The notes under the pieces are model-generated. The model made no database searches and was not told the origin of the DNA. It worked only from the letters and a program-made list of their open reading frames with translations. From Minisyncoccia bacterium (lineage in GTDB: Bacteria > Patescibacteriota > Minisyncoccia > Phycocordibacterales > UBA6065): 24,000 nt of DNA. The stretch's first letter is position 1. Each line of letters starts with the position of its first letter. Location of the stretch: NCBI GenBank assembly GCA_044233485.1, contig JBIIJY010000005.1:26815-50814 (forward strand), in the 5' to 3' direction. Positions 3,731 through 12,327 of this stretch are shown one piece after another. The position numbers were made by a program, and so were the translations under genes.

Positions 3731-4177
3731 ATGAAACTTGGCATCGGCAGGGTGGTCGTCGCGACACTTCTGCTATTTGTTGGAATTGCGATAAGTGGAT
3801 GTTCGATTGGTGGGGCTGCCGTGGCGAGTCCGGGTTTATTCCGGTTCAACCACGGCAACTTCGTCGAGGTGATCAACACCTCCACGCGCACTGTGCTTGT
3901 GCGCCCCTCAATGTATCAGCCGATCATAGTGCGGCCTGGGCAGACTGCTCAGGTTCCGCTCAATCGTTGGGTCAATCAACCCAACTATGTCGTGATCCTT
4001 GAGGCAACACCTCAAGGTCAGGCGATTCCGGGAGGGAACTTCCGCCAGTTCACCTACTGGATTTATAACGAACCGGCAGGGCCGGTTCAGCCGCCACCCA
4101 TTGTGGTGTCCGAAATGATCAACCAAGGACCGCCATATCTCCAGATTGGTGGTGGTGGGTCGCTTTTCGGGTGGTGA
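3731..4177 (+). CDS. Hypothetical lipoprotein
   Basis: 148 aa. Signal peptide with lipobox IAISG|C. Pro/Gly-rich, with no recognisable domain. Visibly GC-richer than its flanks, with its own promoter and terminator. Confidence 0.7.
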   Translation: MKLGIGRVVVATLLLFVGIAISGCSIGGAAVASPGLFRFNHGNFVEVINTSTRTVLVRPSMYQPIIVRPGQTAQVPLNRWVNQPNYVVILEATPQGQAIPGGNFRQFTYWIYNEPAGPVQPPPIVVSEMINQGPPYLQIGGGGSLFGW

Positions 4178-4188
4178 TTTACTTTCAG

Positions 4189-4225
4189 GGGGCGCGAAGC
4201 GAAGCTTCGCGCCCCTCTTTTCTTT
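4189..4225 (+). terminator. Rho-independent terminator
   Basis: GC-rich hairpin GGGGCGCGAAGC-gaa-GCTTCGCGCCCC (4189-4215) followed by TCTTTTCTTT. Confidence 0.8.
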
Positions 4226-8272: not shown

Positions 8273-8345
8273 GCGCCCGTAGCTCAGTCGGTAGAGCATC
8301 TCCCTTTTAAGGAGTGGGTCGTTGGTTCGATTCCAACCGGGCGCA
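8273..8345 (+). tRNA. tRNA-Lys (anticodon UUU)
   Basis: Cloverleaf read by eye. Acceptor GCGCCCG/CGGGCGC, D arm GCTC-AGTCGGTA-GAGC, anticodon loop CUUUUAA, T arm GTTGG-TTCGATT-CCAAC, discriminator A. CCA is not encoded. Confidence 0.9.
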
Positions 8346-8371
8346 CAAAACGACGTTGAGGCGTAACGTAG

Positions 8372-9139
8372 TTAACGTGTCTCACTCCAGATATACTCGA
8401 ACATAATTCTAAATGTCTCAGTGATATATTTACTCTCGATAACAACAGTTAGGTAGCTTTCTTTGAAATTAGTAATAGCGACCTTATCCCCGTAAATTAC
8501 TATTTGTGCAGGAATTTTCAAACGGTCAGCTGGAACTTTTTTTCGAGTAATTAAATATTGAGTGTCTTCCTCAATCGGGGTGGCAATTATCTGACCATCA
8601 GTGTGGGGTGTAATTGCTTTCGTGTGAATATTCTTTTCAATCTGTTTATCGATCTGTTCTTTAATTAAATGAAGAACTTCTTGACGCCCTTCATGTATGG
8701 GTGAACTGATTACAAGTATGTTTTGATTCGTTTCGAGGATGTCATTATGAGTATATTTAATACCCTCGATTCCTTCATAAAACTGCACATTAGGTTTTCC
8801 ATTCAAGGAGTTAAACTCAGAAGAAAGCTTTCCAAGTATGTTGCCAAACTCAGAAAAAGCTCGGGATACGTGCTGTTTTTTCGTTTCAAGAAGCTCTTGT
8901 ATGCCTTTTGGATGCTTAGGGAAGAAGAGTGATACCTTACCAATATCATCTCGTTTTTCGACAAGGTTTAATTCAATGAGCTGCTCAAGTACTTTGTAGA
9001 CTAATGGCCTACCAAGATTGGTTTTAAGAGAAATAATCTTTGCCGGCGATAGGCCGTTTTTCAAAAGGTAAGTATAAATCAGCGCTTGTTCTTGACTTAA
9101 TCCGCACTCAGTAAGGATTGTTTCATTTATATTTGTCAT
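8372..9139 (-). CDS. TrmB-family transcriptional regulator
   Basis: The N-terminal winged helix LSQEQALIYTYLLKNGLSPAKIISLKTNLGRPLVYKVLEQLIELNLVEK is TrmB-type. I set the start to ATG 9139 (MTNINE...) because a TATAAT -10 box (9157-9152, minus strand) lies inside the longer ORF-track version. Confidence 0.75.
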   Translation of the reverse strand: MTNINETILTECGLSQEQALIYTYLLKNGLSPAKIISLKTNLGRPLVYKVLEQLIELNLVEKRDDIGKVSLFFPKHPKGIQELLETKKQHVSRAFSEFGNILGKLSSEFNSLNGKPNVQFYEGIEGIKYTHNDILETNQNILVISSPIHEGRQEVLHLIKEQIDKQIEKNIHTKAITPHTDGQIIATPIEEDTQYLITRKKVPADRLKIPAQIVIYGDKVAITNFKESYLTVVIESKYITETFRIMFEYIWSETR

Positions 9140-9151
9140 AAGTATGTGACA

Positions 9152-9179
9152 ATTATACACTTATAAATACAGTATGCAA
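9152..9179 (-). promoter_or_regulatory. Promoter of the TrmB-family gene (short leader)
   Basis: On the minus strand: TTGCAT (9179-9174), 16-nt spacer, TATAAT (9157-9152). The ATG at 9139 is 12 nt downstream of the -10 box. Confidence 0.5.
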
Positions 9180-9231
9180 GTTAATTGTGTTATATAGCAA
9201 TGAAACTATAGAGATTCTAAGGTAGATTGTA

Positions 9232-9259
9232 TTGACAAATCTATTCATTATGCTATGAT
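9232..9259 (+). promoter_or_regulatory. Promoter of the hammerhead-punctuated operon
   Basis: TTGACA (9232-9237), 16-nt spacer, TGcTATGAT (TATGAT at 9254-9259). Divergent from the TrmB-family gene promoter about 50 nt away. Confidence 0.6.
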
Positions 9260-9325
9260 TATATAAGAACAAGGGAAAAGGAAGCACTTACGCTTTACTA
9301 CCTGAGTATAGTTGACATTTCAGTC

Positions 9326-9667
9326 ATGAAAACCACTACATATTTCGGCTTTGGCATCGCCCCCTCAATGTTCCCGGACGGGAACATCACCAAAACTACC
9401 CTTTCGCCTGAAGAGGCGAAAGCGGTGGTCGAGGCAGGGGTGATCCCTTGCCTCAACCCGAGCCATAAGGCGTCGATAGACGCCTTGGGGAGCCGGTTCG
9501 GCATCACAGTGCCAATTCCCGAGCGCGCGCCGACGGTGGCATTGGTGCCAGGCGATCGTCTGCTGGTCATGGGCATCTCGGGACTCCCTCGTTTGGAGGG
9601 TCGCCACGAGTATTCCAGTGAGGAGGTTGCCAAGGCCACCTTTACCTTCTCACTCTGGGCGGTTTAA
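9326..9667 (+). CDS. DUF1874 / AcrIII-1-like protein (putative cyclic tetra-adenylate ring nuclease family)
   Basis: 113 aa. Recognised from my memory of SIRV1 gp29 / STIV B116. It shares their length, an N-terminal hydrophobic FGFGIAPSMF segment, a His at residue 47 (NPSHKASIDAL versus the family's GHDSTI context), GDRLLVMGISG, an RLEG motif at residues 89-92 and a C-terminal FTFSLW strand. One hand-counted 60-nt line (9481-9540) is 43/60 GC, against about 18-19/60 in typical host lines. Confidence 0.55.
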   Translation: MKTTTYFGFGIAPSMFPDGNITKTTLSPEEAKAVVEAGVIPCLNPSHKASIDALGSRFGITVPIPERAPTVALVPGDRLLVMGISGLPRLEGRHEYSSEEVAKATFTFSLWAV

Positions 9668-9824
9668 GGAGAAGGGGGTGAGGAAGGTTGTAAGTGAACC
9701 TAAAAAACTTCACATCGGCCACGATTGTTATGGCGTCATCATCGACGAGACAGATGCGTAATTCTTTGGGGAAGCTCCAGAGCGCTTGGTAAGCGGAAAC
9801 TACTGGGATGATGCAAATTATCCC

Positions 9825-9874
9825 CTGTTCTCGGAATGTAATTCCGACTGATGAGTCCAAAAGGACGAAAACAG
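9825..9874 (+). ncRNA. Hammerhead ribozyme, type III (copy 1)
   Basis: Stem III CUGUU (9825-9829) pairs with AACAG (9870-9874). C17 is at 9830 (UUC site). Stem I is UCGGAAU-GUA-AUUCCGA (9831-9847). Core CUGAUGA (9848-9854), stem II GUCC-AAAA-GGAC (9855-9866), GAAA (9867-9870). All invariant core nucleotides are present. Confidence 0.9.
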
Positions 9875-9927
9875 AAAGTTTTTGAAGGAGTAAATTAACA
9901 ATCAAAAAAATAGAAAGGAGGTGAAAA

Positions 9928-10131
9928 ATGAGGAATAAATTCCTTAGTCTGACTAAGTGGTTGGCAGTCATGATCATCGTCAATAGCTTAATCGCTTTGG
10001 TGGTCGTCATGAATGCTGACACCAACAGTCAGTCGTTCCAGAAGTTTTGGGAGAGCCGTAACCTGATTCTGATCGCAAATCTTTTGCTGATCGTGGCTTG
10101 TGGTGCTTCCGCCCGACTCTCGAGGAACTGA
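9928..10131 (+). CDS. Small two-TM membrane protein (hypothetical)
   Basis: 67 aa. Strong SD AAGGAGGTG (9915-9923), with 4 nt between it and the ATG. Two predicted TM helices (WLAVMIIVNSLIALVVVM; LILIANLLLIVACGASA) and a basic C-terminus RLSRN. It lies between hammerheads 1 and 2. Confidence 0.65.
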   Translation: MRNKFLSLTKWLAVMIIVNSLIALVVVMNADTNSQSFQKFWESRNLILIANLLLIVACGASARLSRN

Positions 10132-10265
10132 CTGGTAGGAAAGTCTACCTAAAGGATCACCCAGGGTTTGCTAGTAAAGAACTCTAACCTTTAATTCAAA
10201 AGGGTGTGAATGTCACCGTGTATACATGGTGAGTTGGCGTGCAACGCCACGGATCAAAAGATTCG

Positions 10266-10317
10266 TTCTGTCTCGGAATGTAATTCCGACTGATGAGTCC
10301 AAAAGGACGAAACAGAA
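10266..10317 (+). ncRNA. Hammerhead ribozyme, type III (copy 2)
   Basis: Stem III UUCUGU (10266-10271) pairs with ACAGAA (10312-10317). C17 is at 10272 (GUC site). Stem I UCGGAAU-GUA-AUUCCGA, CUGAUGA, GUCC-AAAA-GGAC and GAAA follow. The 42-nt core is identical to copy 1. Confidence 0.92.
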
Positions 10318-10516
10318 GGTTCAAATTTAATGTGATCAGTTTCAGCTAGCATGAAACTGGTAAAGGATCTATCTCGCAGCGTGACGGCGAACCTGTCAGC
10401 GTAAGAGGTGGCTTAGATCCAGCTTAAGAATGACCTATTCTTGAGCACTTTATTGAGCCTGCCACGTTGTGTGGTTGGTTCATAGAGTTCTTGAACAACT
10501 AATTGAAAGGAGTGGT

Positions 10517-10756
10517 ATGTTGATCTTAAACATCGACCGAGTCAAACAGCTTGTTGAGGGAGACCAAAAGGATGGGGAGATCCCCATCATGGCTCTCCGT
10601 CGGAGGCTCATCGAGGGTAAGGTGACAAAGGCAGACCTTTTCAAGACGAGGTGCTTCGGCACCAGGTCTTGGAGAAGTCTGCTCGAGCTACTCGATCTCG
10701 AAGAGGGTCAAGTCATTGCCTCTCGTCCGGAGGGTGTGGTGGCGGCTGCGGCTTAG
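10517..10756 (+). CDS. Small hypothetical protein (possible helix-hairpin-helix-like nucleic-acid binder)
   Basis: 79 aa counted from ATG 10517, which follows the SD GAAAGGAG (10506-10513). The ORF-track GTG start at 10469 has no SD. The segment FGTRSWRSLLELLDLEEG loosely resembles an HhH motif. GC-rich. It lies between hammerheads 2 and 3. Confidence 0.55.
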   Translation: MLILNIDRVKQLVEGDQKDGEIPIMALRRRLIEGKVTKADLFKTRCFGTRSWRSLLELLDLEEGQVIASRPEGVVAAAA

Positions 10757-10799
10757 GCTCGCGGGGTATGCATACTACCTGGCAACAGAATTGTATGAA

Positions 10800-10823
10800 T
10801 AGTATTAGAGTACTCTAATACTA
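10800..10823. repeat. 24-bp perfect palindrome abutting hammerhead 3
   Basis: TAGTATTAGAGTACTCTAATACTA equals its own reverse complement. It ends 1 nt before stem III of hammerhead 3. Confidence 0.9.
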
Positions 10824-10874
10824 GTTGTTTTGGAATGTGTGTTCCGACTGATGAGTCCAAAAGGACGAAACAAC
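10824..10874 (+). ncRNA. Hammerhead ribozyme, type III (copy 3, divergent stems)
   Basis: Stem III GUUGU (10824-10828) pairs with ACAAC (10870-10874). U17 is at 10829 (GUU site). Stem I is UUGGAAU-GUGU-GUUCCGA (two G-U pairs), and the core CUGAUGA-GUCC-AAAA-GGAC-GAAA is identical to the other copies. It sits 57 nt upstream of the methyltransferase ATG. Confidence 0.85.
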
Positions 10875-10930
10875 AATCATCTACTTGCTTTTTATATAAT
10901 GAAGCGTCTATAGTAACTTCCGTCGACGCA

Positions 10931-11401
10931 ATGAAAAAATTTCTTATTCTCTATAATCTGCGCAGTGTATATAATGTGGGGGCGATTTTTCGTACTGCTG
11001 ATGCTGTTGGTATTGATTGTGTCTATTTGATCGGTACGACGCCGACACCACTCGATCGTTTTGGTAGTCCGCGAAGTGATTTTGCTAAATGCGCGCTCGG
11101 TTCAGAAAAAACTCTAGCCTGGGAATATCGAAAAACACTTGTACCACTTATTAAAAAACTACAAAAAGAAGGAGTTCAGATAATTGCTCTTGAGCAAGAT
11201 GCTCAGGCGATAGATTACAAAAAATATGAACCTATAGGTGATTGTGCTGTGATCTGTGGAGAAGAGGTGTATGGTATTCCTCTAAAAATACGTGCACTGG
11301 CAGATCAAACTCTCGAGATTCCAATGAAGGGGACGAAGGAGTCGCTTAATGTGTCTGTGGCGACAGGAATACTACTCTATGGACTATTCGACCGAGATTA
11401 A
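10931..11401 (+). CDS. SpoU/TrmH-family RNA 2'-O-methyltransferase
   Basis: 156 aa from ATG 10931 (MKKFLILYNL...). SPOUT motifs NVGAIFRTADAVG, IALEQD, VICGEEVYGIP and LEIPMKGTKESLNVSVATGILLY. The ORF-track extension from 10835 overlaps hammerhead 3 and I rejected it. Confidence 0.85.
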   Translation: MKKFLILYNLRSVYNVGAIFRTADAVGIDCVYLIGTTPTPLDRFGSPRSDFAKCALGSEKTLAWEYRKTLVPLIKKLQKEGVQIIALEQDAQAIDYKKYEPIGDCAVICGEEVYGIPLKIRALADQTLEIPMKGTKESLNVSVATGILLYGLFDRD

Positions 11402-12327
11402 TAGGAAACACCTGCTTGAGGATTGAAGGAAGCGTCACGGATGAGGAGCGAGTCCGAGCGCATATTCCAAAGCTTGGTACGACTACCAAGATAGAGATAA
11501 TATCGCGGTAAGAGAAAATCAGAGTCATTTCTAAATACACCAACACAGCCATTATAGGTGCTGACCTCTTGAATAAATTGTCGGCACTGCGCACTCTCGA
11601 CTTTAGCGAGTGAGCTTGCGGGTGGAACGGTACAGCGAGGGAGTGTGCGCAGAAGGTCGGCGCAACCGCCAGTTGGTTCTCCGTACAATTCTTTGTATTT
11701 TGGTAACAGGTCAGGGCACGATGTTTTTGGTCGTGGCGACAAGGTGCTCTCCAAATCAAAATATCCAAAACATTTATTTATCTGAAATGAAACTCCGAGC
11801 GGTGAGGGGCCAGAATTGATATACACCGTCTCACCTGGTGAGAGGGTGAGTGGCTCAGAGGTATTCTCTCCGCCGATGGTTGGGATGGCAACAAAGGATG
11901 GGATTGTTCCACCTCGCTCAGTTAAGAGACTCTGAATACTTCCTCCAGAGAGAGGGATGGTTTCTTTTTCGGTACGGTTTACAAGGGTAATAACTTCGAG
12001 ACTGCCACGAGTTCCTTTAACTCCTTCAATACTTGTGCGGACATCTTTTGATACTCGCGCCGATTTGAGTTGCTCGGCGAGTTTATTGGCCGCAGCTATC
12101 TCGGTGTCATTACGAAAAGGGAGAAGTATTTGGCTTTGCTTCACTTCGATCTCTTCGAGGATCTGTGGGCCGAAAGTCGTTCCAGAACTTATCGGAGCAG
12201 GGGCGTTGATGAATGGGGCACTGCGAGCATTTGGAGAATTGTAACCCTCTTGAAAAAGCCAGATCACTATCAAAATAGCAAAAGTGATCCAAAGGGTTTT
12301 CGTGTGTTCAAACATCTCGCTAAACAT
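11398..12327 (-). CDS. Membrane-anchored hypothetical protein (possible lamin-tail-like domain)
   Basis: I set the start at ATG 12327 (MFSEMFEHTKTLW...), 4 nt after the mutM stop; the longer ORF-track version overlaps mutM. It has an N-terminal TM helix. The segment LEVITLVNRTEKETIPLSGGSIQ...LTLSPGETVYINSG resembles LTD-type beta domains, followed by a Cys-containing C-terminal part. Confidence 0.6.
   Translation of the reverse strand: MFSEMFEHTKTLWITFAILIVIWLFQEGYNSPNARSAPFINAPAPISSGTTFGPQILEEIEVKQSQILLPFRNDTEIAAANKLAEQLKSARVSKDVRTSIEGVKGTRGSLEVITLVNRTEKETIPLSGGSIQSLLTERGGTIPSFVAIPTIGGENTSEPLTLSPGETVYINSGPSPLGVSFQINKCFGYFDLESTLSPRPKTSCPDLLPKYKELYGEPTGGCADLLRTLPRCTVPPASSLAKVESAQCRQFIQEVSTYNGCVGVFRNDSDFLLPRYYLYLGSRTKLWNMRSDSLLIRDASFNPQAGVSY

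Follow-up and report, generated by a model that had tools for sequence, protein, structure and literature searches.

Hammerhead ribozymes as predicted self-cleaving punctuation of an accessory operon in a patescibacterial chromosome

The window analyzed here is a stretch of 24,000 nucleotides (nt) from a Minisyncoccia bacterium (assembly GCA_044233485.1, contig JBIIJY010000005.1, positions 26,815 to 50,814 of the forward strand). It contained polA, pilB, tsaE, holA, three tRNAs, spoU, fpg, ruvA, and rpsT, the gene content of a chromosome of Patescibacteria (candidate phyla radiation, CPR), a group of ultrasmall bacteria. Three type III hammerhead ribozymes lay on the plus strand downstream of a gene of the DUF1874 family, and two small open reading frames (ORFs) lay between them (Table 1). 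Predicted cleavage by the three ribozymes delimited two cassettes of one small ORF each: cassette 1 at 9831-10272 (442 nt) and cassette 2 at 10273-10829 (557 nt). Parts of the region 9200-10800 had a GC content of 0.51-0.58, compared with 0.35-0.45 in the flanks. No integrase was found among the main ORFs of the window or the called genes of its 12-kb neighborhood, no transposase or reverse transcriptase was found among those called genes, and a comparison with PHROGs gave no match.

Table 1. Features of the hammerhead operon and of the genes on either side of it. Positions are those of the window; designations of the form L163 are those of related loci.
Feature	Position	Strand	Basis and remarks
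Candidate sigma-70-like promoter	9232-9259	+	TTGACA, 16 nt, TATGAT, with TG; consensus match only
DUF1874 / STIV B116-like / Csx16-family gene	9326-9667	+	113 amino acids (aa); first in the predicted operon; profile comparisons
up1, structured RNA domain of about 145 nt	9680-9823	+	Profile and covariation; from just past the DUF1874 stop codon to hammerhead 1
Hammerhead 1, type III	9823-9876	+	Rfam 38.5 bits, E 4.3e-6; own model 65.1 bits; predicted cleavage C9830/U9831
ORF67, candidate small protein	9928-10131	+	Two hydrophobic segments; Shine-Dalgarno sequence (SD) AAGGAGG at 9915-9921
Tail before hammerhead 2	10155-10259	+	Hairpin-rich, conserved; nhmmer matches L163 8097-8180 (E 8e-11) and L185 7398-7531
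Hammerhead 2, type III	10265-10318	+	Rfam 49.7 bits; own model 66.8 bits; predicted cleavage C10272/U10273
c2, structured leader of about 180 nt	10320-10498	+	Between hammerhead 2 and the ORF79 SD; profile and compensatory changes
ORF79, member of a small protein family	10517-10756	+	SD GAAAGGAG at 10505-10512
Tail before hammerhead 3	10744-10823	+	Perfect 12+12 palindrome at 10800-10823; 10744-10801 matches L054
Hammerhead 3, type III, last of the array	10822-10876	+	Rfam 38.8 bits, E 3.5e-6; own model 71 bits; predicted cleavage U10829/U10830
TrmBL2-like winged-helix regulator	8372-9160	-	Divergent from the ribozyme operon; Pfam TrmB E 1e-9
SpoU-family 2'-O-methyltransferase	10931-11401	+	Pfam SpoU_methylase E 6.5e-31; downstream neighbor

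The gathering score of the Rfam Hammerhead_3 model (RF00008) is 48.5 bits. Hammerhead 2 passed this score, and hammerheads 1 and 3 missed it (E ~4e-6 for both) because their stem III is short. A covariance model trained on 56 related hammerheads scored all three copies at 65-71 bits (E 1e-17 to 1e-19) and detected none besides them on the plus or minus strand of the window. Each of the three kept both core sequences, CUGAUGA and GAAA, together with an intact U-H dinucleotide at the cleavage site, and the cleavage-site triplets were UUC, GUC, and GUU, respectively. In the Rfam alignments the core was surrounded by three helices, of which stems I and II ended in loops and stem III was open, and the three-way junction was the local minimum-energy fold of each copy. 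Stem II was GUCC-AAAA-GGAC in every copy, which is the minimal type III form. Hammerheads 1 and 2 showed no differences in their 42-nt bodies, in agreement with an earlier account drawn from the letters of this DNA (the sequence-only reading), which had described the two copies as nearly identical. Among the 56 aligned relatives, which were pre-selected for pairing, 13 of the 16 pairs in stems I, II, and III showed compensatory change, and the loop positions U15, A39, and A41 were invariant.

The sequence-only reading had also claimed cleavage products of 442 and 557 nt that share one layout of ribozyme body, strong SD, single small ORF, and hairpin-dense 3' tail. The boundaries predicted from the Rfam matches and the intact cores were exactly these. 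Both SDs and ORFs were where they had been placed (AAGGAGG with ATG 9928, 67 aa; GAAAGGAG with ATG 10517, 79 aa), and folding gave hairpin-rich tails. The common layout held for the SD, the ORF, and the tail, but cassette 2 adds its structured leader before the SD. The unit itself was confirmed as to its cassettes and was larger than described: it starts with a promoter-like site and the DUF1874 gene and includes non-coding RNA modules that are conserved, all of which had been overlooked. Folding z-scores were -4.9 for cassette 1 and -9.0 for cassette 2. Within the block 9001-10800 they ranged from -2.1 to -9.1, compared with a window mean of -1.2. A search for repeats between the two cassettes found none other than the hammerheads.

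The two cassette ORFs differed in their relatives. ORF67 matched itself alone among 5.8 billion clusters, had no relative in a local phmmer search and no match in Pfam or PHROGs, and was not called in the NCBI annotation. ORF79 had a homologue downstream of a hammerhead in locus L195 (local phmmer, E 2e-9) and ten matches among 1.84 billion representatives, six of them 68-75 aa long with 30-52% identity. Word-index searches returned only self matches for both ORFs; the ORF79 family came from phmmer and the exhaustive search of representatives. These homologues indicate that ORF79 is a genuine small protein family. Its Pfam comparison gave weak hints of an RNA polymerase (RNAP) alpha C-terminal domain (CTD), and a PDB fold search with its AlphaFold2 model (four helices, predicted local distance difference test score 76) gave no significant match; a functional assignment was rejected on these grounds. 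Inside the ORF79 coding region, 10630-10684 formed a near-perfect 22-bp hairpin (z -4.7). The Rfam mir-1295 match at these positions was rejected as spurious, the hairpin not being kept in the homologous genes of L195 and L170.

Judged by profile matches and covariation, the most conserved parts of the predicted operon are non-coding. The up1 profile had 29 matches, all on the plus strand. Among the 13 distinct full-length copies, 12 ended 0-3 nt before a hammerhead, and the copies started 4-15 nt past a stop codon, either that of DUF1874 or that of an unrelated ORF. Compensatory changes were seen in 18 of the 34 predicted up1 pairs, and 94.8% of cells were paired, compared with 33-53% when the partners were slid as a control. 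Copies elsewhere were located at 1329-1475 and 3769-3911 of L165, 6350-6496 of L173, 6354-6507 of L163, 7309-7451 of L175, and 7789-7932 of L178. There was no up1 match in Rfam at E<=1, and the up1 core pattern was absent from IMG/VR. The domain is possibly a structured RNA motif not described before. Next to the stop codon of DUF1874, a purine-rich stretch (9669-9678) can pair with the 5' strand of hammerhead 1 stem III, which in the minimum-energy fold displaces the ribozyme. Riboswitch-like control of hammerhead 1 by up1 was rejected as a conserved feature because the alternative pairing present in the window (9669-9678 with 9822-9832) had no equivalent in locus L165.

The c2 profile matched L185, L181, L170, L162, L180, and L183 (E 1e-28 to 1e-42), with coordinates of 6817-6994 in L185, 6847-7019 in L181, 5139-5362 in L170, and 2614-2800 in L162. 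Compensatory changes were seen in 22 of its 49 predicted pairs. The 3' hairpin of c2 (CUUGAGCACUUUAUUGAG ... UUCAUAGAGU) occurred in several copies per locus in DUF1874 arrays. The tails 5' of hammerheads 2 and 3 were likewise conserved together with hammerheads and followed unrelated ORFs: the L163 and L185 matches to the first tail lay directly 5' of a hammerhead and 3' of unrelated ORFs, and the L054 match to the second (E 6e-7) lay just 5' of the L054 hammerhead. Additionally, a GUUCUUUGAA motif lay 4-6 nt past many hammerheads (9877-9890 in the window, 1532-1550 in L165, 542-560 in L201) and was often followed after 10-12 nt by UUCAUAGCG. Both words also flanked the c2 hairpin.

The DUF1874-like protein had 338 homologues, many with precomputed PF08960 annotations. 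Its own Pfam match fell short of E 0.01, and 15 of its 32 aligned homologues matched PF08960. The family profile matched AFV3-109 in the PDB (E 2e-4), an invariant histidine (H47 in the window protein) aligning with a histidine of AFV3-109, and a PADLOC comparison matched Csx16 (E 4e-5). The 9326-9667 product thus appears to be a distant member of the DUF1874/Csx16 (AcrIII-1/Crn2 ring-nuclease) family, with an activity that is predicted at most. Viral members of the DUF1874 family are cyclic-tetra-adenylate ring nucleases (10.1101/778746). The annotated ORFs of the window included no CRISPR genes. Contigs with the identical DUF1874 protein were all 100% identical to the window and so offered no strain polymorphism to exploit. 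The promoter candidate upstream of this gene agreed with the consensus at 11 of 12 positions and was the top site within 8300-11600.

A 23-nt core pattern of the hammerheads was found in at least 119 genome stretches, mostly of Saccharibacteria and other Patescibacteria, and in 36 viral contigs. The minimal type III hammerhead is widespread in Patescibacteria, and no paper linking hammerheads with this group was found in the literature searched. Among the matches listed, 28 of 156 sequences (155 loci and the window) carried 2-4 copies. An alignment scan of metagenomes for DUF1874 gave 80 loci among the matches listed. The covariance model placed hammerheads in 26 of these loci, 49 in total and in arrays of 1-4. 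All 49 lay downstream of the DUF1874 homologue and on its strand, the first hammerhead usually 60-290 nt past the DUF1874 stop codon. ORFs typically started 20-100 nt after a hammerhead, and an SD-linked search found a following ORF for 32 of 52 hammerheads, at a median distance of 114 nt. For the 101 genome-locus hammerheads with both neighbors called, co-orientation was seen for 78% of the upstream and 68% of the downstream genes; an upstream co-oriented gene with a downstream opposite one was found in 19 cases and the reverse in 9, all from naive ORF calls.

The genes carried between hammerheads varied. In total, the non-redundant arrays held 67 candidate ORFs of at least 50 aa, of which 42 were singletons and the others included 11 families that recurred across loci at different array positions. 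Recognizable products included a stand-alone sigma-70 region 4 protein, an RNAP alpha-CTD-like protein, and a GNAT protein; the remainder were often membrane proteins or lipoproteins, and small proteins of these two kinds followed hammerheads in L075, L049, L078, and L163. The search of related metagenome loci that the sequence-only reading had proposed thus found hammerheads with differing ORFs. Its suggestion of a mobile gene-cassette format was borne out insofar as the genes between hammerheads differ and change array position, but the conserved unit was the structured 3' tail plus hammerhead, with no integrase or cassette machinery. A phage origin was rejected: the PHROGs comparison was negative, the up1 core pattern was absent from IMG/VR, and the DUF1874 clade occurred in two IMG/VR contigs, neither with hammerheads.

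Neighboring hammerheads (up to 8 kb apart) shared stem III even where stem I differed. Chimeric stem III pairs between neighbors averaged 3.0, compared with a genome-locus background of 0.85 (L001-L155); opposite-strand neighbors averaged 3.2 and distant copies in the same genome 1.46. Since opposite-strand neighbors share stem III equally and distant copies do not, the sharing points to local duplication or gene conversion and not to circular RNAs.

On balance, 9232-10876 is probably one plus-strand transcription unit, an accessory operon in which the hammerheads would act as self-cleaving punctuation and yield separate, end-protected RNAs. The unit would comprise, in order, the promoter-like site, the DUF1874/Csx16-like gene, the structured up1 domain, hammerhead 1, ORF67, hammerhead 2, the c2 leader with ORF79, and hammerhead 3. 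Hammerhead cleavage yields a 5'-hydroxyl and a 2',3'-cyclic phosphate. If each ribozyme cuts at its own 5' edge during synthesis of the long RNA, the first piece would be the DUF1874 mRNA, its 3' end formed by the structured domain of about 145 nt and a 2',3'-cyclic phosphate. The second would be the monocistronic 442- and 557-nt RNAs, each beginning with a 5'-hydroxyl and a compact ribozyme body and ending in a hairpin-rich tail with a cyclic phosphate, and the third any RNA reading through into spoU. Every cistron would thereby receive standard, structure-protected ends, and its stability and translation would become independent of the neighboring cistrons, an arrangement that would suit an operon with fast gene turnover between relatives.

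The window and its relatives present the motifs with their cleavage sites, the co-orientation, an arrangement conserved across loci, variable cargo, and conserved structured flanks. From these we infer transcription as a single unit, cleavage in vivo, and the effects on stability and translation. The uncoupling of cistrons was the best supported of the three roles suggested by the sequence-only reading, and it is not new: a 2011 study put forward processing of a long transcript to single-gene RNAs as the role of clustered bacterial hammerheads (PMC3088659), and a 2019 review lists mRNA processing as a suggested, unproven role (PMC6765202). In that study, tandem hammerheads on either side of single genes showed the expected cleavage in vitro and, for one case, in Escherichia coli (PMC3088659).

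Several observations weigh against punctuation as the role of the array. Hammerheads 1 and 3 fall below the Rfam gathering threshold, and in the minimum-energy fold the pairing of 9669-9678 with 9822-9832 hides stem III and the cleavage site of hammerhead 1. Ordinary intrinsic terminators are present in the genome. ORF67 is an orphan. Hammerheads occur in just 26 of the 80 DUF1874 loci, so the operon works without them. The unit conserved between loci is tail plus hammerhead, not hammerhead plus ORF. Finally, a terminator comes directly after some of the terminal hammerheads, which have no downstream cistron; insulation of a downstream 5' end is therefore not the whole story. Upstream 3'-end maturation may matter as much as downstream insulation, given this conserved module, the terminal terminators, and the 19 versus 9 orientation cases.

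The strongest alternative, though a doubtful one, goes further: the main task of the hammerheads would be 3'-end maturation of the RNA upstream, with the structured tail plus hammerhead as the functional unit and the downstream content incidental. The cyclic-phosphate end left after up1 or a tail would block 3' exonucleases or be recognized by a partner. This account fits the position of up1, which ends 0-3 nt before the hammerhead in 12 of 13 copies and begins 4-15 nt after the stops of unrelated ORFs, and the conservation of both cassette tails with hammerheads and not with ORFs. It also fits L167, L204, and L206, where strong terminators stand 3-5 nt after the terminal hammerheads and cleavage would remove the hairpin while serving no downstream gene, and the 19 hammerheads with an upstream co-oriented and a downstream opposite gene, which are twice as common as the reverse. 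These supporting counts, however, rest on naive ORF calls, and terminators were not enriched after hammerheads overall (11 of 227, 4.8%, compared with 3.3% at random positions). A co-oriented ORF follows most hammerheads at a short distance, and the conserved GUUCUUUGAA element follows many of them, so the downstream side is constrained too. As an observation in its own right, a strong rho-independent terminator stood 3-14 nt past the last hammerhead of the array at 7388-7470 of L167, 4043-4150 of L204, 4295-4390 of L206, 4973-5065 of L013, and 5320-5410 of L067.

A narrower idea, tentative and on present comparisons unlikely, is that up1 and hammerhead 1 form one composite RNA device of an undescribed kind, a structured 3' domain that depends on the 2',3'-cyclic-phosphate end made by the ribozyme. 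Such a device might cap and protect the 3' ends of bacterial mRNAs, serve as the handle for a ligase or a cyclic-phosphate-binding protein, or be a hammerhead controlled by a ligand or protein. Its position behind a ring-nuclease-family gene hints at a functional link between the two, since enzymes of that family likewise generate cyclic-phosphate ends.

It is improbable that the hammerhead modules are locally duplicating intergenic repeats with little host benefit beyond supplying homology for the gain, loss, or swap of cassettes by DNA recombination. The identical bodies of hammerheads 1 and 2, the common stem III of neighbors (3.0 versus 0.85) that holds equally on opposite strands (3.2) and not for distant copies (1.46), the patchy presence in 26 of 80 DUF1874 loci, and the varying cargo order among relatives would all be expected of such repeats. 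Against this, the catalytic core is invariant, the stems covary over hundreds of copies, and 49 of 49 copies in DUF1874 arrays are co-oriented with the operon, which argues for selection on the RNA and not just on a DNA repeat; the neighborhood also has no transposase, integrase, or reverse transcriptase.

Less probable again is that cassette 1 at least is not an mRNA and that the hammerheads release structured non-coding RNAs, the small ORFs being incidental. With no homologue of ORF67 among 5.8 billion clusters, and no call for it in the NCBI annotation, cassette 1 may be something other than an mRNA. In the same direction, nucleotide-level conservation with covariation is seen in up1, c2, and the tails while most ORFs are not conserved, and the folding z-scores of the cassettes are very low. 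ORF79, however, is a genuine protein family by its homologues; the SD of ORF67 is close to consensus and ideally spaced, and the ORF encodes two hydrophobic helices; small membrane proteins and lipoproteins follow hammerheads in four other loci; and eleven cargo ORF families recur.

The least probable account, that the 442- and 557-nt RNAs are circularized by an RtcB-type ligase or by the hammerhead reverse reaction into stable circular coding or non-coding RNAs, agrees with the ends supplied by the cleavage chemistry, with the high structure of both cassettes, and with a 6-bp helix that joins the ends of cassette 1 in the minimum-energy fold (ACAGAA, 9871-9876, with UUCUGU, 10266-10271), but the chimeric stem III of cassette 1 is off register by one nucleotide (no contiguous in-register pairs, five with a 1-nt bulge), that of cassette 2 has three pairs and its 3' end is locked in its own palindrome, the window lacks a minus-strand hammerhead, and a search for circular or spliced products of comparable bacterial arrays found none (Perreault et al., PMC3088659). 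Stem III sharing was rejected as a circularization signal, being weak in the window, explained by duplication, and equal on opposite strands across loci. A canonical stem III, needed to rebuild a ribozyme, is not formed in either cassette, and the circular coding RNAs suggested by the sequence-only reading found no support.

Upstream of the operon, a profile of 21 homologues of the divergent regulator aligned over its full length to TrmBL2 in the PDB (5bpd, E 4e-12). A CARF sensor domain was rejected for this protein, the weak PADLOC match spanning the helix-turn-helix alone and the full-length alignment being to TrmBL2. Among the matches listed, 20 of 119 genome loci had a regulator homologue near hammerheads of this class, and in 13 of these 20 the homologue lay upstream in divergent orientation. 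In 19 of 51 metagenome loci, a divergent copy lay less than 600 nt from DUF1874. The divergent pair of regulator and DUF1874/Csx16-like gene (8372-9667) is kept in many CPR loci. A tRNA-Lys gene adjoined the 3' end of the regulator gene both in the window (8273-8346) and in L075 (~4400). Compared with the window, the block of tRNA-Lys, regulator, DUF1874, and hammerheads was inverted relative to spoU in L075. Neither the adjacency of hammerhead 3 and spoU nor the proposed link to the downstream methyltransferase mRNA is thus conserved. Elsewhere in the window, 3731-4216 held a GC-rich, lipoprotein-like ORF of 148 aa, negative in Pfam and followed by a strong terminator (GGGGCGCGAAGCGAAGCTTCGCGCCCC and a T-run); of all 300-nt segments in the window, this one had the strongest structure (z -9.3).

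Hundreds of bacterial hammerheads have an unsettled role, glmS being the sole understood case according to the 2019 review (PMC6765202), and RNA processing in Patescibacteria is almost unstudied. For tests of what such ribozymes do, the window locus and its relatives are compact and conserved: three ribozymes, a candidate promoter, a single conserved gene, variable small genes, and conserved structured RNA flanks share about 1.6 kb of chromosomal operon. The comparative data reduce the question to two alternatives, insulation of the downstream cistron and maturation of the upstream RNA's 3' end.

The closest known counterparts are the clusters described by Perreault et al. in 2011 (PMC3088659), in which 2-4 co-oriented hammerheads within a few kb bracket genes or short blocks of varying identity, as they do here. 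Processing of the transcript to single-gene RNAs was proposed for those clusters as well, and circular products were also considered. Those clusters lie in prophage regions, whereas the window locus lies between polA, holA, tRNA-Lys, spoU, fpg, and ruvA, with neither an integrase nor PHROGs matches. Unlike the 2011 clusters, the array described here accompanies a DUF1874 gene and frequently a TrmBL2-like regulator, its class of hammerheads is fused to conserved structured RNA modules, and the copies are all of the minimal type III form with the GUCC-AAAA-GGAC stem II.

Retrozymes and viroid-like RNAs (PMC4918200, PMC5680766) share with the window the use of type III direct repeats to delimit an RNA of several hundred nt with 5'-hydroxyl and cyclic-phosphate ends. 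They are non-coding eukaryotic or infectious RNAs with identical copies, and ligation rebuilds their ribozyme. The copies that flank the window cassettes, in contrast, differ in stem III register and enclose SD-led ORFs, with no reverse transcriptase among the called genes and no minus-strand ribozyme. Integron cassette arrays resemble the locus as one-strand arrays of small, promoterless, variable genes downstream of a conserved gene and a promoter; integrons carry an integrase and attC sites, whereas the window array has neither and its repeated element is predicted to act at the RNA level.

In synthetic insulators of the RiboJ type, a self-cleaving ribozyme 5' of the SD strips the variable 5' context, so that gene expression becomes independent of the preceding sequence. 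RiboJ is engineered, used as a single copy, and defined by measured expression; the arrays described here are natural, carry conserved 3' tails, and are known from sequence. In the tRNA punctuation of mitochondria, structured RNAs between cistrons direct cleavage and release individual mRNAs. There RNase P and RNase Z make the cuts and the tRNAs are themselves products, whereas the punctuation in the window is predicted to cleave itself. Overall, the window locus is a genuine and well-formed case of an arrangement already described for bacteria in 2011. The lineage is new for it, the context is not a prophage, and the conserved RNA modules that come with it (up1, c2, and the tails) were previously unreported.

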